From contig CAZBEW010000002.1 in assembly GCA_964491115.1 (NCBI GenBank), forward strand, positions 62 through 64,061: a stretch of 64,000 bases of DNA, in the 5' to 3' direction. Positions 2,196 to 12,880 of this stretch are shown here, in pieces. Below the pieces are notes generated by a model that was not told where the DNA came from, did no database searches, and saw nothing but the letters and a program-made list of their open reading frames with translations. A program made the translations under genes and the position numbers. The stretch comes from an uncultured Pseudomonadales bacterium (GTDB lineage: Bacteria; Patescibacteriota; Microgenomatia; UBA1400; PJMF01). Positions within the stretch are counted from its first letter, which is position 1, and each line of letters starts with the position of its first letter.

Positions 2196-5100
2196 ATGGA
2201 AAAACAAACAGAAACCCAAACTCCGATTGCAGAAGCGGCAACAAATCCAATCGCAGAAACCCAAACTCCGATCACAGAGGCGGCAGCAACTCCTCAGTCT
2301 GATATAGAAGAGCAGCCTAATATAAAAGAAGCTCAAGCTGAGTCAGAAAATGCAGCTTCATTGGAAAAATTAAAGCGTTGGTTTGGTATTTTGCGTCAAG
2401 TTTGTCAAGAAGATCCGCGAGTGGTGCTACAAGCTTTGCAAAAACCAGAAAAACTAATATTAAGGTCTCCAGATGATGTTATGGCGAAGCGAGCAGAAGA
2501 GTTGCGGAGCACTGTTGATCAGGAAAAGACAAGAAAAGAATTCAGTCAAAAAGGAGTAGATCCTGAAAAAGCCCTAACTGTGATTAATTTTTTAAGAAAA
2601 AATGCGAGTCAAAGCTATTGGCCAACAGACAGATCTGGCTCACCGGATTATGATAAAGAGATAGAGGCTCATTATCAATATAATGCAGAAGCTGATTTTG
2701 AATTTATTAGTGAATTAGCGAATATTAGTGATGATCCAGCGGCCTTACTTGAAGATTTAAATAATATTTTTCCTTTTAAAAATATTGAATACAATAAAAA
2801 TAATACGCTTGAATATGCAAAATTTGTGGCAGATAATCCTCGGGTTCGTGAAGTCATTAATAAGATTAGAGTATTACCAAATCTGAGCAAATTACATAAG
2901 ACTGATGATCTAGTGTTTTCTCGTGACGAAAGTGGTCAAACTCAAGTGAGTATTTATGAAAATGTCTCTGGTAACAATGTATTTTCTCCTGATCCATTGC
3001 AAGATTTAGCAAATTTAGACGAGCAAAGTTTTCAAGAATTACTCTCAGAAGAAAATCTTGTTCGAGTTCAAGAATTATGGGCAAGACTTGCTGGTAAAGA
3101 GGCAATTAAGTTGGAGCTATTACCAAATTTATTGCAATTAGCTCACAATCCTCAACTGGAAACATTATTTGTGCAAGTGATTAAAGCAAATACCAATAAT
3201 TCTTCAGTAGAACAAGCTTTTGCAAGTCAAATTTTAGCTGACTCCAATGAGGTGAGTAGATTTATTTGGACAGTTTCAAGAGCAGAGCAAATTCTTCAAG
3301 AAATTCCAGAGACGGTTACTTTGCTTGATAATGGCTTTGATTTAAATAGCGTTCTTCGCTCCAAATTTAATAGTCATAAAGAAGCAACTGATATTAAGCA
3401 AATTCTTGATCAACAAAATGAGTTGCTCAGCGATTATAACAATCAAGATTTAATGCTCAATGCCAAAATATTGAAAAAATATGGTCTAGAGATGCCTTTA
3501 AGCAATGAATCGAGAGAATATTATAATTTCATGAGAAGCTCTGATCCAGATCGCCTAGAAAAAGCTTTAGAAATTTATGAGGTAACTAAAGATTTTTATA
3601 CCAATGAGACAGACGATGATCTTCGTAAAAACAATGCTAGATTTAGTATTTGGGAAACAATTGACAATAAATTAGCCAACTTTTCTGTAACTGAAGTTAG
3701 CGGTCTTTTTCAATTGTTAGCTGACCAGAAGGGTTTGCTAGGAGATTTTGATCTATATACTTCACAAGTTTTAGAAAACCTTGATTCATTCGAGACCCTT
3801 AAAGAACGCTTTCAGGCTTTGGCTGACCCAAAAATTCAAGAGATGATTAATGACCAATTATTTAACCAGACATTAAAGGCGCATATGGGCGTTGAGAGCG
3901 TTGGTCATAGTTGGCAAAGATGGCAAGTTTTTTTTCAAGCGCCCGATACTTACCAGGATTTATATAGACAAAAAGATTTGTTTTATCAAAGAATGAATGA
4001 TTTAAATAATGAAAAATTATCATTTGCCCTAGATTCAAAGAGCCTTCATTATATACTTCAACTATCAGAAGCAGATTACTTAGATTTTAAAAATACTTGT
4101 CTTACTGATGCTCCACACAACATCGTTAACGAGACCCTTGTGAACAATTATGATTTGTTAAAAACAATGAACCCCGCTGATCAAGAATATTTATTAAACG
4201 AACTCAGATCTTTAGGTATTAAGGCTGATAGTCTCTTTGAGTTTAATCTTGCTGATTCCAATCTTTATCTTAATTTAAGTGAAAAAGATCGTCAGCAGGT
4301 ATTTATTTTAGTTAAAAAATATCAGAATTATGTAGATGATGTTTTAAAAATCCAAAGTAATTTTTTTCTCCAAAACAACAAATTACAGTTAAATTTTTTT
4401 AGTGAGCTAGCCCTTAATCCAGATTCTCAAGATCGTTTTTTTGCATTACTTGATTATTTAAATAAAAATCCCGCCTTGCTTATTTTCAATCCTCTAAGTC
4501 AGGAGAGCAACTATAATGCTAATTATTTTGTAGATTTTCTTGTGACTCGTTTAAGTGAAGGAACTTTTTCTCTCAATGAGTACATAAATCAAGATGGAAC
4601 TATCACTGAGAAATTTTTAGAAAGTGAAGTATTTCAAGAGTCGTTTCAAAAAGCTTATGGTTTCCAGCTAACTGGTGATTTTATTGGAAAATTGAGTCAA
4701 TTTTATCAAGATCTACACGCTCCAGAATATGCTGCTTTGATTGTTAATCCAGAAGCTTATTGGGAAAGCAATCGTGGTCTAATGATTAGACTAGAACAAA
4801 TTGGCTGGCCAGTTAATAATTTTGACCGATTTCGCAGTCTAGTGCAGAACCCTGAGACTAACGATATCTTAAGTTCGGTAGATGTAAATTTATTAAATTC
4901 TTTATCTAAAAACATTGGCCTTAATCCCAACAACATTTATTATGTTAATAAAAGTTCTCTATATTGGTTAAAATCTAATCTGAATAATAATGAGAAAAGA
5001 ATAAATTTTTTTAAAAAAATTCTTAACGAGAAACCCTCTAGTTTTAAAAGTTGCGTCACTGCGTTTCGCTCAACAGGAGCAGAGAAAATTGATCAAATTG

Positions 5101-6620
5101 TTAACGAGCCGCTGTATTTTGAGAGATTATTAGAGGCAATGCAGGAATTTCGTAATATTACCCCTTCTTTAATTACTAGTTATATTTTAAATCTAAATGA
5201 AGCTGAGAGAGCAGAATATCGAGAAAAAATTGATAACTTTAGACATAATGTGCATCGTAATGTACCAATTATGCCTTTAAGCGAAGGAGTTGGAGGTATA
5301 GATTTTTTAACTGATGCAATTTCGCTGACTTTTCCCAGCACCAATCCAGATGATATTAAGTTTCGTTTAACAGAATTGGAAGATCGGTGTGAAGATGTGG
5401 CCAATTTGAAAATTCGAGAAGAAGGGTATCAGGGAAAAATTGTCTCTAAAGAAAAAGAAGCCGTTCTTAGAGACCCGAATAAGACTATTGATGAAGGATT
5501 AATCAACCTTATCAAAGTCATTTTTGCTGATCAACAAGGAGCTGATTATTTAGCTGGAGGCGGAGATGAGGCTTTCGCTTTTCGAGGTTGGGCAAGATTA
5601 TTAGTGGACGCAGGGGCAACTAATCAAAAAGCTTTGTTTAAAGATAATTTACAAGAGGTTATAGCTTGTAGTCGAGTTTCTTTGGGAAATCAAATTGATG
5701 TTTTTACCGAAAAAATGCTTGGAGATACTTCACAAATAGCTGAAAAAAATACCATTTTAAATAAGGCGAAGGAATTATTTGGCATTTATTATAAGGATAA
5801 TGCTTCCAGTAGTATTGAAAATTTTTTACAGGGTCATCAAGAGCAAGTTAATACATTACTAGCCAAACTAAGTGAAAAGCGCCTGAGTGCTTTAGAAAAG
5901 AATATTGTTAATAATAAAGCCATGAGTGAAGAGGATAGATTGGATTTTAAAGACATCATCAGTGGTCTGAGATTAACAGACACGAACATGAACCAAAAAC
6001 GTCAATTATTAGCTAGGTTGCTGTCTTTTATGACTGAACGAAGCATTTTTGCTGGAGGGGCTGGTTTACGCAAAGTAGTCCAAAATGAAAGAGAGAAAAT
6101 TATTTTAAGAGATAAAGAGGGGCAAGAGATTGATCCTAATTCAGTGGTGACTGCTTATCTCACTAAAAACGCTGCTTCTTTCTTTGCTAAAACAACAGCC
6201 GGATTGTGCACTGCGGGTAATGTTTCTCTTTTTAATCGACCAGATCATTTTCATGTTAATTTAGTTGATGCAGAAGAAATAGTGGTGGGTAATATTCAAG
6301 GTTATCAATATAATTATAATGGTCAGCCGGCACTAATTTTTAGGGGCTTTAACCCTTCCACCAGCATCATTTCTTCAACTAATGCTTGGATTTTGTGTGA
6401 CCAAATGCTTGATATAATTAAACAAATTGCACAGGACAACAATATCACCCAGGTTTTTATTCCAGATGACAATGGCTTTCATCCATTAACAAATCGAGTT
6501 GCTGAGGGAGTAGGTCAGTATTTTACACATAAATTTTTTAGAAGAGAAAATCAGGCTTTCTTTTCTTTTGATATCACTCATGACAATATAGTTGATAATT
6601 TCTATAGAATTCCGGTTTAA
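2196..6620 (+). CDS. giant hypothetical protein (1474 aa), cytoplasmic, N/Q/E/L-rich
   Basis: Single uninterrupted ORF; SD-like gagttgacccATG context. Acidic T/P/E-rich repetitive N-terminus (TETQTPIAEAATNPIAETQTPITEAAATP). No TM or signal peptide, no catalytic motif I can name. Confidence 0.7.
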   Translation: MEKQTETQTPIAEAATNPIAETQTPITEAAATPQSDIEEQPNIKEAQAESENAASLEKLKRWFGILRQVCQEDPRVVLQALQKPEKLILRSPDDVMAKRAEELRSTVDQEKTRKEFSQKGVDPEKALTVINFLRKNASQSYWPTDRSGSPDYDKEIEAHYQYNAEADFEFISELANISDDPAALLEDLNNIFPFKNIEYNKNNTLEYAKFVADNPRVREVINKIRVLPNLSKLHKTDDLVFSRDESGQTQVSIYENVSGNNVFSPDPLQDLANLDEQSFQELLSEENLVRVQELWARLAGKEAIKLELLPNLLQLAHNPQLETLFVQVIKANTNNSSVEQAFASQILADSNEVSRFIWTVSRAEQILQEIPETVTLLDNGFDLNSVLRSKFNSHKEATDIKQILDQQNELLSDYNNQDLMLNAKILKKYGLEMPLSNESREYYNFMRSSDPDRLEKALEIYEVTKDFYTNETDDDLRKNNARFSIWETIDNKLANFSVTEVSGLFQLLADQKGLLGDFDLYTSQVLENLDSFETLKERFQALADPKIQEMINDQLFNQTLKAHMGVESVGHSWQRWQVFFQAPDTYQDLYRQKDLFYQRMNDLNNEKLSFALDSKSLHYILQLSEADYLDFKNTCLTDAPHNIVNETLVNNYDLLKTMNPADQEYLLNELRSLGIKADSLFEFNLADSNLYLNLSEKDRQQVFILVKKYQNYVDDVLKIQSNFFLQNNKLQLNFFSELALNPDSQDRFFALLDYLNKNPALLIFNPLSQESNYNANYFVDFLVTRLSEGTFSLNEYINQDGTITEKFLESEVFQESFQKAYGFQLTGDFIGKLSQFYQDLHAPEYAALIVNPEAYWESNRGLMIRLEQIGWPVNNFDRFRSLVQNPETNDILSSVDVNLLNSLSKNIGLNPNNIYYVNKSSLYWLKSNLNNNEKRINFFKKILNEKPSSFKSCVTAFRSTGAEKIDQIVNEPLYFERLLEAMQEFRNITPSLITSYILNLNEAERAEYREKIDNFRHNVHRNVPIMPLSEGVGGIDFLTDAISLTFPSTNPDDIKFRLTELEDRCEDVANLKIREEGYQGKIVSKEKEAVLRDPNKTIDEGLINLIKVIFADQQGADYLAGGGDEAFAFRGWARLLVDAGATNQKALFKDNLQEVIACSRVSLGNQIDVFTEKMLGDTSQIAEKNTILNKAKELFGIYYKDNASSSIENFLQGHQEQVNTLLAKLSEKRLSALEKNIVNNKAMSEEDRLDFKDIISGLRLTDTNMNQKRQLLARLLSFMTERSIFAGGAGLRKVVQNEREKIILRDKEGQEIDPNSVVTAYLTKNAASFFAKTTAGLCTAGNVSLFNRPDHFHVNLVDAEEIVVGNIQGYQYNYNGQPALIFRGFNPSTSIISSTNAWILCDQMLDIIKQIAQDNNITQVFIPDDNGFHPLTNRVAEGVGQYFTHKFFRRENQAFFSFDITHDNIVDNFYRIPV

Positions 6621-6750: not shown

Positions 6751-7098
6751 ATGTCAAAAATTGAAAAACTTACTCAAAAATTAATTGATTTTCGTGAAGC
6801 TCGCAATTGGAAACAATTCCATAACCCAAAAAATTTAGCAGAATCAATTTCTATAGAAGCAAACGAGCTACTAGAACACTTTCAGTGGTTGAATCTAGAA
6901 GAAAGTCAAAAATATAGTGTGGAGCATAAACAAGAATTAGCAGAAGAAATATCTGACGTTCTGAATTATCTAATTTTATTAGCTCATGACATAGACATTG
7001 ATTTAATTGAAGCTGCAATTAAAAAAATAGAAATAAATAATAAGAAATATCCAATAAAAAAGTCAAAAGGCATAAGCACAAAATATAATAAATTATAG
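6751..7098 (+). CDS. MazG-like nucleoside triphosphate pyrophosphohydrolase (all-alpha NTP-PPase)
   Basis: LIDFREARNWKQFHNPKNLAESISIEANELLEHFQW...EEISDVLNYLILLA is the typical MazG/YpjD-like signature (FHxPxNLAxxIxxEAxELLE, E-rich helix). Strong SD, and a 9-nt gap to the next gene. Confidence 0.7.
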   Translation: MSKIEKLTQKLIDFREARNWKQFHNPKNLAESISIEANELLEHFQWLNLEESQKYSVEHKQELAEEISDVLNYLILLAHDIDIDLIEAAIKKIEINNKKYPIKKSKGISTKYNKL

Positions 7099-7107
7099 AA
7101 TTACAAA

Positions 7108-8970
7108 ATGCTTGTTTATAAAAATACAGCTACTGGATTTTGCTACGACGTTGAGACTAATAAGATAGCTGACAGCATAGAATTAGCTTTCAAAAACAGT
7201 CTTGGTCGAAAAGTAAATCCTAGTGAAAAAAGTGCTTGGATAAACTCCATGTCATTTATGGAAAGAATAGTTCGTAATTCTGGAGTGGCTCAAGACTGTG
7301 GGGTTTTAATAGAATATAATATTCCAGCTACTTCTAAAAGAATAGATTTCATAATTGCTGGTTGTGATAGTGAAAACAAAAAAAAATTTGTTATTGTTGA
7401 ACTTAAACAATGGCAGCTAGCGAATAGCACTTTTAAAGATGGCCTTGTAACTAGTTTTTTTAGAGGTGGCGAAAGAGAAACTCCACATCCGTCTTATCAA
7501 GCATATTCTTACAAAAGTTTCTTAAAAGACTATAACGAGAATATTTATAGCGGTAAAATTAATCCCTATTCGTGTGCATATTTACACAATTATAAGGAAA
7601 AACACCCAGAGCCTCTAAAAGCTGATGCGTATAAAGAATACGTAGCTGATTCTCCAATTTACTTTCAAGATGACTTCGAAAAATTAGCAAACTTTATAAA
7701 AATGCATGTTGGTAATGGCGGTGGTGAAGAAATTCTTTATGACATAGAATCGGGGAGAATTAGGCCTAGTAAAAGATTAATTGACTGTGTAAGCGCAATG
7801 TTTAAAGGCAATCAAGAATTTATTCTCTTGGATGAACAAAAGGTTGCCTACGAAACAGCTCTTCATAGTGCTATCAATAGTAAAGAAAAAACTGTAATTA
7901 TTGTTAAAGGTGGTCCTGGTACTGGCAAATCAGTTGTTTCAATGAATTTATTTGGAGGATTACTCGCTAAACAGTTAAACACAGTTTTTGTAGCACCCAA
8001 TGCTGCTTTTAGAAGTGTGATGAAACATAAATTAGCTGGAGAGGAAAGGAAAGAGAAATTAAATCATTTGTTTAAAGGTTCGGCAGCTTTCTACGGGTTA
8101 AAAGATAACGTTTATGATGCAATTGTTGTTGATGAAGCACATCGTTTAAAAAATTATAAAGCTTACCAATATTTTGGACAAAATCAAATTGAAGATATTG
8201 TGAAGGCTGGTAAAACTAGTATTTTTTTTGTTGACGAAAATCAAATTATTCGTCCAGAAGACATAGGCTCGATTGAAGAAATTAAAAAAATAGCCAATCA
8301 ACAATATGCAACAATTAATGAAATAGAACTACAGGCTCAATTTAGATGTTCTGGTTCAGACGGATATATAAATTGGTTAGATAATACTTTAAGAATTAAA
8401 GAAACAGCAAATTTTGATGGTTGGGAAGACAAAAACTTTGAATTTCTTATTTTTGATGATCCGAATGATTTAAGGCAAGCTATTAAGAATAAACAAAATC
8501 AGGGGTTTGATGCTCAATTGCTAGCAGGATACGCTTGGAAATGGACAAGTGCAAAAGATGGCAATTATGATTCTCAGAGTGAAGATGTTCAGATACCTGA
8601 ATATAACTTTAGTATGCCTTGGAATTCAAGAAAAACTGGGTCAAATTGGGCAATTGATGCAAATAGCCACGAACAAATTGGTTGTGTACATACAAGTCAA
8701 GGTTTAGAATTTGACTATGTGGGTGTAATCGTTGGTAATGATCTGCGCTTTGATAAAGAAAAATTTGAGTATTTTGTTCCTTGGGACTCTTATAAGGATA
8801 TGGCTGGAAAAAAGGGTTTAAAAGATGAACCAGAAAAGCTATGTTTATTAGTAAAAAATATTTATAAAATTTTAATGACTAGAGGTATTTACGGTTGCTA
8901 TGTTTTTTTTCAAGACAAAAATTTGAAAGAGTTTGTTGAAAGTAGGTTGAAAAATGATTTATACAGGTAA
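7108..8970 (+). CDS. DUF2075-like nuclease-ATPase: N-terminal PD-(D/E)xK-like domain + Schlafen/helicase-like P-loop NTPase
   Basis: N-terminal region ...KRIDFIIAG...KFVIVELKQW has a D...ExK nuclease motif. Walker A GGPGTGKSVV, Walker B/DEAH-like VVDEAHRL, and a C-terminal region typical of DUF2075 proteins. Confidence 0.7.
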   Translation: MLVYKNTATGFCYDVETNKIADSIELAFKNSLGRKVNPSEKSAWINSMSFMERIVRNSGVAQDCGVLIEYNIPATSKRIDFIIAGCDSENKKKFVIVELKQWQLANSTFKDGLVTSFFRGGERETPHPSYQAYSYKSFLKDYNENIYSGKINPYSCAYLHNYKEKHPEPLKADAYKEYVADSPIYFQDDFEKLANFIKMHVGNGGGEEILYDIESGRIRPSKRLIDCVSAMFKGNQEFILLDEQKVAYETALHSAINSKEKTVIIVKGGPGTGKSVVSMNLFGGLLAKQLNTVFVAPNAAFRSVMKHKLAGEERKEKLNHLFKGSAAFYGLKDNVYDAIVVDEAHRLKNYKAYQYFGQNQIEDIVKAGKTSIFFVDENQIIRPEDIGSIEEIKKIANQQYATINEIELQAQFRCSGSDGYINWLDNTLRIKETANFDGWEDKNFEFLIFDDPNDLRQAIKNKQNQGFDAQLLAGYAWKWTSAKDGNYDSQSEDVQIPEYNFSMPWNSRKTGSNWAIDANSHEQIGCVHTSQGLEFDYVGVIVGNDLRFDKEKFEYFVPWDSYKDMAGKKGLKDEPEKLCLLVKNIYKILMTRGIYGCYVFFQDKNLKEFVESRLKNDLYR

Positions 8971-8974
8971 TTTC

Positions 8975-9160
8975 TTATTCTTTTAGTAATTTAGATTCAT
9001 TGGTGAATCTGTTAATTGAGATTTTTTTGAGAATCTTTTGACCTTGTTTGGTGTCAAAATCGATGATTTCTAATTTTTGTTTTTTATTAATAAAGCGAAA
9101 TTGACGTAATTTTAAATCTACAGTATATTTCTCAAAAGTTGGAAGTTTTATTATGGCCAT
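8975..9160 (-). CDS. small hypothetical protein (61 aa), possible swapped-hairpin (AbrB/MazE-like) DNA-binding regulator
   Basis: ORF divergent from the methyltransferase gene, with its start abutting a perfect 10-bp inverted repeat. The segment LEIIDFDTKQGQKILKK loosely resembles AbrB-type beta-hairpin DNA binders. This call is weak. Confidence 0.3.
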   Translation of the reverse strand: MAIIKLPTFEKYTVDLKLRQFRFINKKQKLEIIDFDTKQGQKILKKISINRFTNESKLLKE

Positions 9161-9189: not shown

Positions 9190-9296
9190 TTTGTTGTTAC
9201 AAATTAAAAGAATTACTTGCTGCATTTAATGTAAACTTATTGTAAGATTTGTATGTTTAAATAAACTAACATATAAACTTAAAAATTTTTGAGAAA

Positions 9297-10256
9297 ATGA
9301 CACAAAAAAAATATCGCACAATAGACCTATTTGCAGGCATGGGAGGCATTCGAATTGGTTTTGAGAAAGTTGGATTTGAGACTGTTTTTGCTAATGATTT
9401 TGATCATGATTGTAAAATTACCTATGATTTAAATTTTAATAAAACAAAGCTTCTTGTTCAGGATATAAGATCAATTCCAACCTCAAGCTTTCCCGATTTT
9501 GATTATATGTTGGCTGGATTTCCGTGCCAACCTTTTTCAGTTGCTGGTTACAGGCAAGGATTTTCCGATCTGCAGGGTAGAGGCAATTTGTTTTTTTATA
9601 TGGCAAGAATAATTCAAAACAGAAAACCAGCGGGCTTTCTACTGGAAAATGTTAAAAATTTAGAAGGTCACGATGGTGGTAAAACTTTTAGGATAATTAC
9701 AAAAACATTAGAAAATTTAGGCTATCACATTCAAACAAAAGTATTAAACACGATGGAATACGGTAATTTGCCACAAAATAGGGAAAGAATTTATATTGTT
9801 GGTTTTAATAATAAACAGACTTCTCATAACTTTAAATTTCCAGAAAAAATTAATCTTAAAATAAAAACTCAAGATTTGTTAGAGAAGGAAGTTCATGAAA
9901 AATATTACTACAATAATAAACCTTTATTTCCTAGAATTAAAGATTCTATTACTAGAGAAGATACCTTATATCAATGGAGACGTAAATATATTCGTGAAAA
10001 TAAAAAAGGAGTTTGTCCAACTTTAACAGCAAATATGGGTACTGGTGGACACAACGTGCCAATTATAAAACAAGGAAAAATAATAAGAAAATTAACACCA
10101 CGTGAGTGTGCAAGGTTTCAAGGTTTTCCAGACTCCTATATATTGCCAGAGATTGCTGATAGCAAGTTGTACAAGCAGATTGGGAATTCAGTCTCAATAC
10201 CGGTCATTAAAAGAATTGCTAGGAATATGAAACTGGCTATTGATAGCGGGTCATAA
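9297..10256 (+). CDS. DNA (cytosine-5)-methyltransferase, type II
   Basis: Motif I DLFAGMGGIRIGF, motif IV GFPCQPFSVAG, motif VI ENVKNL, C-terminal QIGNSVSIPV. This is canonical Dcm/C5-MTase. Confidence 0.9.
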   Translation: MTQKKYRTIDLFAGMGGIRIGFEKVGFETVFANDFDHDCKITYDLNFNKTKLLVQDIRSIPTSSFPDFDYMLAGFPCQPFSVAGYRQGFSDLQGRGNLFFYMARIIQNRKPAGFLLENVKNLEGHDGGKTFRIITKTLENLGYHIQTKVLNTMEYGNLPQNRERIYIVGFNNKQTSHNFKFPEKINLKIKTQDLLEKEVHEKYYYNNKPLFPRIKDSITREDTLYQWRRKYIRENKKGVCPTLTANMGTGGHNVPIIKQGKIIRKLTPRECARFQGFPDSYILPEIADSKLYKQIGNSVSIPVIKRIARNMKLAIDSGS

Positions 10257-10257
10257 G

Positions 10258-11070
10258 TTATTTGTTAAAAAACTTATTAAGTTCTTTCTCAATATGATAT
10301 TCAATTTGATCATTGTCAACAATGTCTCTCAACTTAATTGTTGCAGGATATAAATTGTTAAAACCCCATGTGATTAGAAAATTGTTATCTTGTAATTCTT
10401 TGGCATATAACCTCAGTTCCATTCTCTTTTTACTTTTATATATTTTAACGTTGCCAAGAGCGCTATCAATATAATTGTTCACAAAAACTGATGTAGAAGA
10501 TGACTTTTTTATAGTTAATGTATTAATAGCTTCTTGATTTATTTTAGCGATTGATAAATGAATGTTGTTGCCAGCTCTGATAAAAATAAAATAGAATATT
10601 TTTTTTAAATTAAAATCTAAAAGTGGTTGTTTTAATTTTTCTAGCAAAATTTTTTGCCAACCTACTAGAATTTTTTCATACTCTTGATTTTCAAATGCCT
10701 GATCTAGTGTTTTTCCAAATCCCTTGAAATTTTGTCCCAACGAAGTTTCATTGGTTTGGGAACTAATTAAGTTGCCCTGTTTATCCACTTTTGCTGAGAC
10801 AAATTTAACATCCACTCCATAATCATTAATTTTAAAAGCATCAATTGGATAATTGCCCGATCCTATTGGCTCTAAATCACAGCCCTGGACTATCCATTGT
10901 TCTAAAAATTCCTTAGTTATTTGAATGTCATTATTTTTTTTATTTATGGTTAGAGATTCTGGTTGAGAAAACGCTACCTTTTTTAATAAATAGTTAATAA
11001 CCTTGTAGGCCTTATGATCTATCAATTCAAGCATTTCTTTTTTAGATAAAAAATCCATTACATAAATCAT
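10258..11070 (-). CDS. putative type II restriction endonuclease (cognate of adjacent C5-MTase)
   Basis: Tail-to-tail with the MTase (stops 1 nt apart). Contains a PD-(D/E)xK-like motif YPIDAFKINDYGVDVKFVSAK (PID...DVK). Very AT-rich. No family-level identification is possible from sequence alone. Confidence 0.5.
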   Translation of the reverse strand: MIYVMDFLSKKEMLELIDHKAYKVINYLLKKVAFSQPESLTINKKNNDIQITKEFLEQWIVQGCDLEPIGSGNYPIDAFKINDYGVDVKFVSAKVDKQGNLISSQTNETSLGQNFKGFGKTLDQAFENQEYEKILVGWQKILLEKLKQPLLDFNLKKIFYFIFIRAGNNIHLSIAKINQEAINTLTIKKSSSTSVFVNNYIDSALGNVKIYKSKKRMELRLYAKELQDNNFLITWGFNNLYPATIKLRDIVDNDQIEYHIEKELNKFFNK

Positions 11071-11377: not shown

Positions 11378-12880
11378 ATGACCATTTCCAAATCCGACTA
11401 CATGCTTTTTCTGCGCCACCCGGCTTGGTTGTGGCTTAAAAAACACCAGCCCCAGCGCTTGCCCGAAGCCGATGCCAATCTCCAGGCCATTTTTGCCAGT
11501 GGCCAGCAATTTGAGGCTTATGCGGAACAGCTCTTTCTTGGGGCAGTTAAATTGGGTTTTGCTGGTTATGATCAATATTTGCGCTTGCCAGAGAAAACTC
11601 AAGCCTTAATTGACCAGCACACTCCCTGTATTTTGCAGGGGAGGCTAGAAGTTGATGGTTTGACTTGCATTTTTGATGTGTTGGAGCGGGTGGATGAACA
11701 GACTTTTAATTTAATTGAAATAAAATCTGGCACTAAGGTAAAAGATACCCATCTTTACGATTTAGCTTTTCAAAGCTTGATTTTAGAGCGTTTGGGCTGG
11801 CAGGTGGGGGAGATCAGTGTTGTGCATGCTGACAGAGACTATGTGCGCCAAGGGGAAATTGATCCCGAGCAATTATGCAGTCGCAGTGAGATCACTCAAG
11901 AGGTTAAAGCCCTTTTGCCACAAACTAAAGACTTAGTTGAGCTAGCCAAGACTGTGCTCAAACAGCCACAGCCGCCTTCTTTTTCACCTAGTTTAGCCAA
12001 TTTAATTGGGGTAAAAGAGACCAACTGGCTCCAAGAGTGGTTGGCCATTTATTCGCAGCTTCATCCTGATTTAGCTAAATACAATATTTATCAGCTAGCT
12101 GGAGCAAAAGCCGAGCAATTGGGCAAATTAGAGAAGCAGGGGATTCAGCTCTTAGCCGATATTCCTGACGAATTAGCCATAACCACCAAACAAAAGTTGC
12201 AAATCCAGACAACGCGGACTGGCCAACCCTTGATTAATCAGTCGGCAGTTAAGGATTTTTTAGCCAGCTTGCACTATCCTTTATATTTTTTAGATTATGA
12301 AACGATGAATGCCGTCATTCCTTTTTTTGACGGGATGAGGCCTTATCAAGATTATCCTTTTCAGTATTCCTTGCATTTATTAAGGGAGCCTGGCGGCAAA
12401 GTAGAGCATTTTGCCTATTTGCATCAAGCCAAGAGCAATCCTTTGCCAGGATTAATCGCTCAATTAAAGCAAGAATTGGGCGAGCAGGGCAGTATTCTCA
12501 CCTGGAATATGAGCTATGAAAAGGGCTGTCATCAACGCATGGCTGATTTTTATCCAGAGGAGGCGGAGTTTTTTGAGCAAGTTAATGAACGCATCGTGGA
12601 TTTGATGACTGTCTTTAAAAACTTGGATTTTGTCGATCGAGATTTTATGGGCAGTGCTAGTTTGAAATATGTTTTACCCGTTTTAGCTCCCGAATTAAGC
12701 TACGCTGATTTAAATGTTGGCGATGGTTTGTTCGCTAGACGGCTGTGGATAGCCACTATTTTGCTGGGTAAAAATAAGCGGGATAAAGAGGCAATTTTAC
12801 AAGATTTGATGGATTATTGTACTCTAGATACCTACGGCATGGTTCGGATTTTAGAGGTGTTGGAGAAGGTGGCGGAGTGA
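11378..12880 (+). CDS. DUF2779-like protein (N-terminal RecB-like nuclease fold + C-terminal RNase-H-like 3'-5' exonuclease-like domain)
   Basis: N-terminus ISKSDYMLFLRHPAWLWLKK and C-terminal FLDYETMNAVIPFFDGMRPYQDYPFQYSLH match the conserved DUF2779 blocks (YLDFET...PYQxxPFQxSxH). GC is noticeably higher than in neighbouring genes. Confidence 0.6.
   Translation: MTISKSDYMLFLRHPAWLWLKKHQPQRLPEADANLQAIFASGQQFEAYAEQLFLGAVKLGFAGYDQYLRLPEKTQALIDQHTPCILQGRLEVDGLTCIFDVLERVDEQTFNLIEIKSGTKVKDTHLYDLAFQSLILERLGWQVGEISVVHADRDYVRQGEIDPEQLCSRSEITQEVKALLPQTKDLVELAKTVLKQPQPPSFSPSLANLIGVKETNWLQEWLAIYSQLHPDLAKYNIYQLAGAKAEQLGKLEKQGIQLLADIPDELAITTKQKLQIQTTRTGQPLINQSAVKDFLASLHYPLYFLDYETMNAVIPFFDGMRPYQDYPFQYSLHLLREPGGKVEHFAYLHQAKSNPLPGLIAQLKQELGEQGSILTWNMSYEKGCHQRMADFYPEEAEFFEQVNERIVDLMTVFKNLDFVDRDFMGSASLKYVLPVLAPELSYADLNVGDGLFARRLWIATILLGKNKRDKEAILQDLMDYCTLDTYGMVRILEVLEKVAE

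Follow-up and report, generated by a model that had tools for sequence, protein, structure and literature searches.

A MazG-like pyrophosphohydrolase gene conserved beside a DUF2075 nuclease-helicase gene: a possible two-gene operon against mobile elements

Why a small nucleotide-hydrolysing enzyme should be encoded directly in front of a large nuclease-helicase is the question raised by two genes of an uncultured Pseudomonadales bacterium, found in a stretch of 64,000 nucleotides that was analysed as a whole (hereafter, the window). An earlier note on this DNA had described a MazG-type pyrophosphohydrolase gene ending 9 nt before the gene of a 620-aa protein with nuclease and ATPase motifs, and had offered the two as a candidate defence module. 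Both open reading frames are present as described, on the same strand, and the larger product contains the expected motifs (SKRIDFII...FVIVELKQW at residues 76–102, GGPGTGKS at 268–275, and VVDEAHRL at 340–347). The features of the locus are as follows.

6751–7098, + strand: MazG-like (DCTPP1/RS21-C6-type) nucleoside-triphosphate pyrophosphohydrolase gene (115 aa, ATG start, PF12643)
6856–6957, + strand: metal-binding catalytic motifs E36-x-x-E39 ... E66-x-x-D69 of the MazG-like protein
7099–7107, + strand: 9-nt intergenic spacer, the operon junction of the MazG-like and nuclease-helicase genes
7108–8970, + strand: nuclease-helicase gene, RecB-type PD-(D/E)xK plus DUF2075/SLFN-g3 SF1B helicase (620 aa, ATG start)
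7108–7812, + strand: N-terminal domain with the nuclease core (residues 1–235 of the 620-aa protein)
7312–7407, + strand: nuclease motifs E69, D80, and E98-x-K100 of the 620-aa protein
7498–7512, + strand: Q131xxxY135 motif of the 620-aa protein
7888–8916, + strand: DUF2075/SLFN-g3 helicase domain (residues 261–603, Pfam)
7909–7932, + strand: Walker A (GGPGTGKS) of the helicase domain
8131–8142, + strand: Walker B/DEAH of the helicase domain

The pair sits in a low-GC variable island of the window, the AT-rich block already seen in the earlier note, with a GC content of 0.28–0.34 over ~4–11 kb against ~0.36–0.41 across most of the window. No tRNA gene that might mark an integration site lies within 20 kb of the pair. 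A promoter scan gave about the number expected from shuffled sequence (15 found versus 13.1 expected) and the terminator count was zero; no regulatory sites are therefore claimed.

The 115-aa protein belongs to the all-alpha MazG family, matching PF12643 with 58.8 bits (cut-off, 27; 6.6e-16). In a search of the PDB, its family profile retrieved an archaeal pyrophosphatase (4qgp) at 3.6e-29 and the DCTPP1/RS21-C6 structures (6sqw/2a3q) at 3.4e-24, with ExxE...ExxD, FHxPKNL, FQW, and a C-terminal KY aligned in common. The catalytic residues Glu36, Glu39, Glu66, and Asp69 are unchanged in all 75 DUF2075-linked homologues (29–99% pairwise identity), and are also invariant in a second family alignment. 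The protein consists of the bare catalytic domain, without a regulatory module, and its intact catalytic site predicts an active enzyme. The preferred substrate of mammalian DCTPP1/RS21-C6 is 5-modified dCTP. Unlike that enzyme, the MazG-like protein of the window is encoded in an operon with a nuclease-helicase, in the setting of prokaryotic defence islands.

The 620-aa protein matches PF09848 (DUF2075/SLFN-g3 helicase), the family guessed for it beforehand, over the whole profile (positions 1–354 of 354; 309 bits, the cut-off being 24; 5e-92). A PDB sequence search with the DUF2075 profile returned only spurious P-loop matches to SRP proteins, and structure prediction was therefore used. The AF2 model (pLDDT, 87; pTM, 0.85) shows an SF1B helicase fold, with SLFN11, RecD2, Dna2, Dda, and Upf1 as the best Foldseek matches (E, 6e-10 to 1e-6). 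The nuclease domain has a restriction-endonuclease-like alpha/beta fold. Both active sites are intact and strictly conserved: the nuclease residues (Glu69, Asp80, Glu98-Leu-Lys100, and Gln131xxxTyr135) and the helicase residues (Lys274, Asp342, Glu343, Gln411, Arg413, Gln531, and Arg592) are unchanged in 75 of 75 pairs, and GGPGTGKS and DEAH are invariant. The N-terminal domain alone forms ~1,600 clusters at 50% identity, distributed across bacteria and archaea. No modified-base reader domain was found in the protein with Pfam, NCBIfam, and PADLOC, residues 1–60 and 136–235 being without assignment.

The gene pair proved to be strongly conserved across phyla and domains, as the module suspected in the earlier note demands. 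In 55 of 78 testable orthologous DUF2075 loci, a MazG-like gene is directly adjacent on the same strand (48 upstream and 7 downstream); at 7 further loci it is nearby on the same strand, and at 16 it is absent within 5 kb. Reciprocally, DUF2075 immediately adjoins 37 of 61 testable MazG-like loci. Among 74 junctions, 21 are 4-nt overlaps and 60 have a spacer of <20 nt. The pair occurs in CPR (including small genomes, where it is kept), Bacillota, Bacteroidota, Pseudomonadota, Chloroflexota, and archaea, in a patchy distribution; orthologues from CPR, Firmicutes, Proteobacteria, and archaea show 40–60% identity between these groups. Annotated plasmids of Priestia and haloarchaea carry this operon too, one of them being Priestia aryabhattai plasmid NZ_CP083270, where the pair lies at 36.9–39.1 kb; homologues are also present in Cohnella, Halomonas, and Parabacteroides. 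Chance alone falls far short of explaining the adjacency. No fusion of MazG to DUF2075 turned up among family members of unusual length, in which the additional sequence is Peptidase_S24, PIF1, or an HpcH-like region, or is without assignment.

This distribution bears on two ways of reading the association that differ from a joint enzymatic role. The MazG-like gene might act on its own in defence or house-cleaning and simply tend to land in DUF2075/Type IV islands, with no direct link to its neighbour: the remaining 24 of the 61 MazG-like homologues are not beside DUF2075, some adjoining HNH nucleases, an HsdR, a C5-MTase, or unrelated genes and one a housekeeping UPRTase, and co-evolution of the partners is weak (Mantel r = 0.33) where a strong correlation had been expected. 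Same-strand adjacency at this frequency across domains and the overlapping junctions argue against such independence, and the pairing is far tighter than co-residence in an island because all other flanking genes vary; we regard mere neighbourhood as very improbable. Alternatively, the MazG-like protein could keep in check a nuclease-helicase that is toxic to its own cell, either through binding or through hydrolysis of a nucleotide that activates it, until phage infection lifts the restraint. Toxin-antitoxin-like systems do usually have a small upstream gene in translational coupling with one for a large effector of potential toxicity, but the gene order is not fixed, other genes are inserted between the two at some loci, and the 16 orthologues lacking a MazG-like gene, as well as the whole Nhi-like clade (see below), exist without the supposed antidote. 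Moreover, the strict conservation of the catalytic residues points to an enzymatic role rather than purely inhibitory binding. An antitoxin function is thus distinctly unlikely, and of the two roles considered in the earlier note, conditioning of nucleotide pools is favoured by the context and the invariant catalytic residues, while the toxin-antidote idea found no support.

The flanks of the orthologous loci are heterogeneous and contain no conserved third gene. In the window, a C5-MTase gene (9297–10256) and a convergent 270-aa ORF adjoin the pair. The note had pointed out this R-M adjacency, which is real but incidental: a 96%-identical relative has the pair without the R-M module, homology breaking off sharply near position 9245, and the R-M system was consequently rejected as a part of the module. 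It is a separate insertion. A 61-aa convergent ORF was likewise considered as a third component and set aside, being present only in near relatives and at one other CPR locus.

Although variable, the flanks are rich in defence genes (Fic, AbiE, RhuM, ResIII, HNH, Mrr_cat, DUF2357/AAA_5, MrcB_N, and C5-MTases), among which genes for Type IV (modification-dependent) restriction turn up repeatedly (SauUSI-like, VcaM4I-like, McrB-N, and Mrr). SauUSI-like PLD-helicase-DUF3427 proteins are encoded at 10 of 80 loci, VcaM4I homologues (E = 7e-87) directly 3' of DUF2075 at three, and DUF3578/MrcB_N within the same operon as the pair on a Priestia plasmid. An independent observation of DUF3427 enzymes beside DUF2075 has been made by Lutz et al. 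In five loci, a NUDIX_4/MutT hydrolase adjoins the SauUSI-like gene, so that the theme of a nucleotide hydrolase next to a modification-dependent nuclease is repeated. The pair is found in the same islands as Type IV enzymes (SauUSI, VcaM4I, McrBC, and Mrr), and in some cases in the same operon, whereas none of their readers (DUF3427, EVE, SRA, SBD, and McrB-N) is detectable in the 620-aa protein.

With respect to known systems, the closest relative of the nuclease-helicase is Nhi-like (Millman et al. 2022; Bacillus cereus FSL H8-0482), in which an N-terminal PD-(D/E)xK nuclease is likewise followed by a DUF2075 SF1 helicase. The two have the E...D...ExK and QxxxY motifs and a length of ~610–620 aa in common, and Nhi-like is also found beside McrBC. 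They are nevertheless very divergent, BLASTP aligning only the Walker A region. By hhalign, the match to Nhi-like has a probability of 95.2% (E = 2.6e-8), and the full-length alignment one of 89% (E = 2.4e-6; 496 columns, collinear over columns 38–606). The PADLOC model PDC-S41, which corresponds to the Nhi-like clade, matches the 620-aa protein partially (74 bits; residues 3–317), as compared with 376 bits over the full length for a B. cereus member. Nhi (SERP2475) of Staphylococcus epidermidis, a single-enzyme nucleic-acid immunity (Bari et al. 2022), and AbiO also unite in a single polypeptide a nuclease and an SF1 helicase that overlaps DUF2075, but their PADLOC models match the 620-aa protein only at residues 235–484 (~50 bits), leaving the N-terminal domain unmatched, and neither has a partner gene. 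These scores rule out direct membership in Nhi or Nhi-like; as judged by profile comparison, the 620-aa protein represents a sister clade of the validated Nhi-like/PDC-S41, distant but collinear, and not a housekeeping helicase family. This clade differs from Nhi-like, a stand-alone gene validated alone, whose loci have no pyrophosphohydrolase neighbour, in its conserved MazG-like partner (the 55 of 78 loci above do not fit an autonomous single gene) and in the C-terminal Peptidase_S24 domain of about a quarter of its members.

Two further comparisons concern the fold. The helicase family PF09848 is common to the 620-aa protein and the group III Schlafens (SLFN11, SLFN5, and SLFN13), which also join a nuclease to an SF1 helicase and have antiviral or genome-surveillance roles. 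SLFN11 is the top Foldseek match, at a sequence identity of 11%, but the N-terminal nuclease folds differ, being the Schlafen core in the Schlafens and RecB-type PD-(D/E)xK in the 620-aa protein. The fusion of a RecB-family nuclease (QxxxY) to an SF1B helicase is that of Dna2/AddAB-type enzymes, and Dna2 is among the top structural matches (552 aligned columns), although no Fe–S cluster motif was noted, the sequences are not related, and the pair is found in defence islands instead of replication or repair loci.

The Dna2-like layout leads to another reading, SOS-linked or housekeeping genome maintenance, in which the MazG-like enzyme sanitises damaged dCTP and the nuclease-helicase processes damaged or stalled DNA. 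It would agree with the LexA/UmuD-type Peptidase_S24 domain at the C-terminus of 23 of 80 orthologues (the S24-fused variants are ~800 aa long), with the MutT/NUDIX genes nearby, and with retention of the pair in small CPR genomes. However, the patchy cross-domain distribution of the pair, its carriage on plasmids, hypervariable flanks of mostly R-M, Abi, Fic, and Type IV genes, and low-GC island in the window, together with the homology of the 620-aa protein to a validated defence protein, make a maintenance role rather unlikely.

The domain assignments, the intact active sites, the conserved operon, and the genomic surroundings are all directly observed; on these grounds we propose, at roughly even chances, that the pair is a two-gene defence operon against mobile elements, composed of a nuclease-helicase and a partner hydrolysing non-canonical dCTP-type nucleotides. 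Homology and context point to the defence activity. In the proposed mechanism, the 620-aa protein would act as an ATP-driven nuclease-helicase that most likely loads onto invading DNA, which probably bears a base modification, and breaks it down; this dependence on modification is extrapolated from Nhi-like, a relative barely detected by BLASTP, from which phages escape by losing a DNA methylase. The 115-aa partner would most likely convert non-canonical, 5-modified dCTP-type nucleotides into the monophosphate, a substrate suggested by DCTPP1, with which only motifs are shared. Such hydrolysis may serve either or both of two ends: (a) host DNA would stay free of salvaged modified nucleotides, and the chromosome would thereby be spared by the nuclease-helicase and the neighbouring Type IV enzymes, or (b) the modified dNTP pool required by hypermodified phages would be destroyed. 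The adjoining C5-MTase would be hard to reconcile with a nuclease dependent on 5mC in general, unless the two act in different sequence contexts.

The same components could instead act by nucleotide depletion and abortive infection, the nuclease-helicase sensing phage DNA or replication intermediates and switching on the MazG-like enzyme, which would drain canonical dCTP/dNTP and starve phage replication in analogy to the dCTP-deaminase and dGTPase defences. Enzymes depleting dNTPs are already established in defence, MazG is among the nucleotide-targeting defence domains predicted by DefensePredictor (still unvalidated in 2026), the active site is invariant, and the tight translational coupling suggests a complex. 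Yet the 115-aa protein has no regulatory module, and the equally invariant nuclease site indicates that the large protein does not merely sense but also acts as an effector; nor would this reading account for the Type IV genes that recur around the pair or for the parallel with NUDIX. Depletion accordingly seems improbable to us.

As the earlier note had supposed, the combination has no place in a named system: neither a named system nor an indexed paper joins DUF2075 with MazG, no indexed paper mentions PDC-S41 or connects Schlafen with MazG in prokaryotes, and an R-M review mentions none of Nudix, MazG, and Nhi. The PADLOC models, with no match to the MazG-like protein and weak partial matches to the helicase, miss the module as a system. 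The finding gives a MazG-family enzyme a concrete, testable role in immunity, and raises the question of how modification-dependent nucleases escape autoimmunity caused by salvaged modified nucleotides. A tentative generalization, which we consider possible though doubtful, is that Type IV-like immunity commonly brings its own enzyme for proofreading the dNTP pool, MazG with the DUF2075 clade and NUDIX/MutT with SauUSI-like proteins. The hydrolases would then remove modified dNTPs, preventing the host chromosome from being marked for self-restriction, and deprive hypermodified phages of building blocks; if true, this would represent an unrecognised layer of self/non-self control using the prokaryotic counterparts of DCTPP1 and the Schlafens. 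A modified-dNTP-specific enzyme or a modification-dependent nuclease-helicase would serve as a useful reagent. Furthermore, each partner has homologues in humans (DCTPP1 for the one, SLFN11/5/13 for the other), and a functional link in prokaryotes could encourage work on whether a comparable one exists in eukaryotic antiviral defence and genome surveillance.

The window sequence exactly reproduces the two ORFs in the sizes and coordinates that had been proposed in the earlier note from sequence alone, including the 9-nt spacer between them:

6751–7098, + strand, MazG-like gene (115 aa)
7108–8970, + strand, nuclease–DUF2075 helicase gene (620 aa)

All motifs claimed for the 620-aa protein were also found, namely a PD-(D/E)xK-like motif (RIDFII...VELKQW, residues 76–102), a Walker A motif (GGPGTGKS, 268–275), and a DEAH-like box (VVDEAHRL, 340–347), and the pair does lie in an AT-rich block (GC content, 0.28–0.34 across ~4–11 kb vs ~0.36–0.41 for most of the window). 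HMM searches agreed with both proposed family assignments: the small protein is MazG-like (PF12643; 58.8 bits; Pfam cut-off, 27), with no match among PADLOC or NCBIfam models, and the large protein contains a full-length DUF2075/SLFN-g3 helicase domain at residues 261–603 (PF09848; 309 bits). The family profile of the small protein matches 4qgp, a pyrophosphatase from archaea (E = 3.6e-29), and the mouse and human forms of dCTP pyrophosphatase 1 (DCTPP1, RS21-C6; E = 3.4e-24). DCTPP1 is a house-cleaning enzyme with a preference for 5-modified dCTP. The alignment with solved structures reaches past the catalytic residues, and the metal-binding acidic residues (Glu36, Glu39, Glu66, and Asp69) are invariant; that this protein acts as an antitoxin-like regulator is quite unlikely. 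The AlphaFold2 model of the large protein is confident (pLDDT, 87; pTM, 0.85), and its closest solved folds are SF1B helicases, with human SLFN11 at the top, followed by RecD2, Dna2, Dda, and Upf1. Both enzymes encoded by the pair are intact, the small one being a DCTPP1-type pyrophosphohydrolase and the large one a RecB-nuclease/SF1B-helicase.

The pairing, put forward in the earlier note as a candidate two-gene defence module, proved to be conserved in gene neighbourhoods. A DUF2075 alignment scan with one genome per GTDB species gave 80 loci from Patescibacteria, Bacillota, Bacteroidota, Pseudomonadota, Spirochaetota, Chloroflexota, Elusimicrobiota, and several archaea, in which MazG-like neighbours were sought by HMM in all six-frame ORFs. 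A MazG-like gene lies directly upstream on the same strand in 48 of the 80 loci, directly downstream of DUF2075 in 7, and nearby on the same strand with 1–4 genes inserted in 7; none was present within 5 kb in 16 loci, and 2 were untestable. Reciprocally, among 80 metagenomic loci fetched with the MazG-like alignment, DUF2075 adjoins the MazG-like gene in 37 of the 61 testable loci and not in 24. The pair is a tightly coupled operon, with a 4-nt overlap at 21 of 74 junctions, a gap of ≤15 nt at 57, and a spacer of <20 nt at 60, and it has spread horizontally over both prokaryotic domains; mere co-residence of the two genes is highly improbable. The pairwise identities of the partners show a weak but significant correlation (Mantel r = 0.33, p ~0.001), which points to a module mostly co-inherited and sometimes re-assorted. 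In RefSeq, the gene order on a Priestia aryabhattai plasmid is MutT, DUF3578, nucleotide pyrophosphohydrolase, DUF2075, and then a Type I R-M system; on a Halalkalicoccus plasmid, DUF2075 comes after the pyrophosphohydrolase gene. The complete pair also occurs, annotated just as hypothetical proteins, in the 22-kb record of Microcystis phage Mwe-JY31 (PP438423.1; L167 4648–6863), where it could serve the phage as a defence against competitors, unless the element has been mis-assigned.

Small genes stand between the two genes or in the place of the MazG-like gene at several loci (L073 4426–4992; L033/L036 4517–5014; L019 4033–5004; L003 4448–4957), encoding HEPN_AbiU2, a 165-aa protein without family, a microbial PARG whose gene overlaps DUF2075 by 4 nt, and a DUF2726 nuclease-like protein. 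The nuclease-helicase may be able to work with partners other than the MazG-like protein. At two loci without DUF2075 (L086 4315–5418 and L133 484–1608), the MazG-like gene is followed by a conserved ~370-aa protein without Pfam match (mutual E = 1e-141), which may represent another partner class.

When the N-terminal domain by itself was used for a deep search, 1,591 clusters at 50% identity were found, in which the domain is almost always located at the N-terminus of ~620- or ~800-aa proteins, the longer form having an extra C-terminal LexA/UmuD-type Peptidase_S24 domain. This domain was found in 23 of the 80 orthologues (e.g. L022 6858–7376, with 22 others among L001–L080), in proteins of ~790–820 aa (P0030, P0036, P0065, P0066, and others), and the MazG-like partner is still present with them. 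The S24 domains suggest that some family members may be under RecA*- or DNA-damage-linked control; an SOS-linked maintenance role of the pair, also suggested by these fusions, is improbable. One family member (P0304; 1,068 aa) is a nuclease-DUF2075 protein fused to a second, PIF1-like SF1B helicase.

The surroundings of the pair were compared with the locus of its closest relative (L161; 96% identical protein, 805-kb contig):

2196–6620, + strand, giant ORF (1,474 aa) immediately upstream of the pair, no Pfam, PADLOC, or NCBIfam match
L161 4947–9467, − strand, giant ORF (1,506 aa) in the same slot of the relative
8975–9160, − strand, 61-aa ORF converging on the DUF2075 stop codon
9161–9189, near-perfect palindrome after the 61-aa ORF, 14-nt arms, TGTAACTATTTTTT/AAACAATAGTTACA
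9297–10256, + strand, C5-cytosine methyltransferase (C5-MTase)
10258–11070, − strand, 270-aa ORF convergent with the C5-MTase, no family assignment
11378–12880, + strand, DUF2779 protein (127 bits) flanking the variable island in the window and the close relative

The relative keeps the MazG-like and DUF2075 genes and the 61-aa ORF, which is also conserved in L163 and a further CPR locus, L087; together with the palindrome, this ORF could make up a small regulator plus operator, or else the site could act as a bidirectional terminator. The R-M system that the earlier note had placed beside the pair is indeed next door, in that the C5-MTase and the 270-aa ORF (9246–11070) likely form a Type II R-M module; since the sole plasmid homologue of the 270-aa protein is also near a dcm gene, this protein is consistent with a restriction partner of the C5-MTase. 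Membership of the R-M system in the pair's module is ruled out, because both genes are missing in the relative and the DNA homology ends sharply near 9245; it is an independent insertion that shares the variable slot with the pair. The two giant ORFs are essentially unrelated, with faint C-terminal similarity only (E = 7e-4), in what seems to be a hypervariable slot for giant genes next to the defence pair in a CPR genome. The DUF2779 gene may be a conserved edge marker of the insertion hotspot.

In the loci compared, no third conserved gene was found beside the pair; its flanks vary between loci, with defence and mobile-element families predominating (Fic/DOC, ResIII/helicase, HNH, RhuM, AbiEi/AbiEii, Mrr_cat, PLD, DUF2357 with AAA_5, MrcB_N, PDDEXK_7, C5-methylases, and several PADLOC candidates), placing the pair in defence-type islands. 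The recurring theme is Type IV (modification-dependent) restriction. Homologues of a PLD-ResIII-DUF3427 enzyme, which has the SauUSI architecture, occur in 10 of 80 loci, and full-length homologues of VcaM4I, a 5mC/5hmC-dependent EVE-HNH enzyme (PDB 6yex; E = 6.8e-87), lie directly downstream of DUF2075 in 3. On the Priestia plasmid, the McrB-N-like DUF3578 gene overlaps the start codon of the MazG-like gene. MazG-like genes without DUF2075 stand before HNH nucleases, an HsdR, or a C5-methylase, and one such HNH nuclease has a sulfur-binding domain that senses phosphorothioate (8h0l; E = 1.8e-21). Furthermore, a NUDIX_4/MutT-like hydrolase is immediately beside the SauUSI-like gene in 5 loci (L018 6980–10310; L058 217–3529; L079 7372–10762; L025 159–3695; L028 1464–4976), co-occurring in varying order with MazG-like/DUF2075; this is a second combination of pyrophosphohydrolase and modification-dependent nuclease, apparently undescribed. 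That DUF3427 enzymes can neighbour DUF2075 NTPases had been noted by Lutz et al., who never mentioned a pyrophosphohydrolase.

PADLOC hits to the large protein were weak and partial (PDC-S41, 74 bits; AbiO and Nhi, ~50 bits, helicase only). Nhi-like of B. cereus FSL H8-0482 (N-terminal nuclease plus DUF2075) was validated as a single-gene defence protein by Millman et al., cloned alone on 2,331 bp. PDC-S41 is the Nhi-like clade, because a B. cereus plasmid homologue of Nhi-like scores 376 bits against it over the full length. In profile alignments, the window's family matches the partial verified Nhi-like sequence (95.2% probability; E = 2.6e-8) and a full-length homologue (89%; E = 2.4e-6; 496 columns), collinearly and with nuclease and Walker motifs in register in both, so that the large protein is a distant homologue of a validated defence protein. 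In contrast, BLASTP sees the Walker A region only, and Nhi-like loci have no pyrophosphohydrolase neighbour. Based on these sequence comparisons, the large protein is assigned to a distinct sister clade of Nhi-like, set apart by its MazG-like partner. One Nhi-like locus adjoins McrBC, and the Nhi-like nuclease-helicase is probably modification-dependent.

We consider it very probable that the module is a defence system. In the favoured model, the large protein would attack invading, probably modified, DNA, and the small protein would hydrolyse non-canonical dCTP-type nucleotides. Its action would stop modified nucleotides acquired by salvage from marking the host's chromosome, eliminate the pools on which hypermodified phages draw, or serve both ends; for this full statement the balance is about even. 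Counting against it are the lack of a detectable modified-base reader domain in the large protein, the action of Nhi-like alone, the missing partner in one fifth of orthologues, the ~40% of MazG-like relatives not linked to DUF2075, and the C5-MTase next door in the window's genome. Nucleotide depletion set off by the helicase is an unlikely alternative role for the small protein. MazG appears as a predicted, unvalidated defence domain in a 2026 listing. The earlier note could not place the combination in a named system, and the two genes together were indeed absent from named systems, PADLOC models, and indexed papers. The nuclease-helicase is of a kind already known; what is new is a dedicated nucleotide-hydrolase partner for the Nhi-like nuclease-helicase family.
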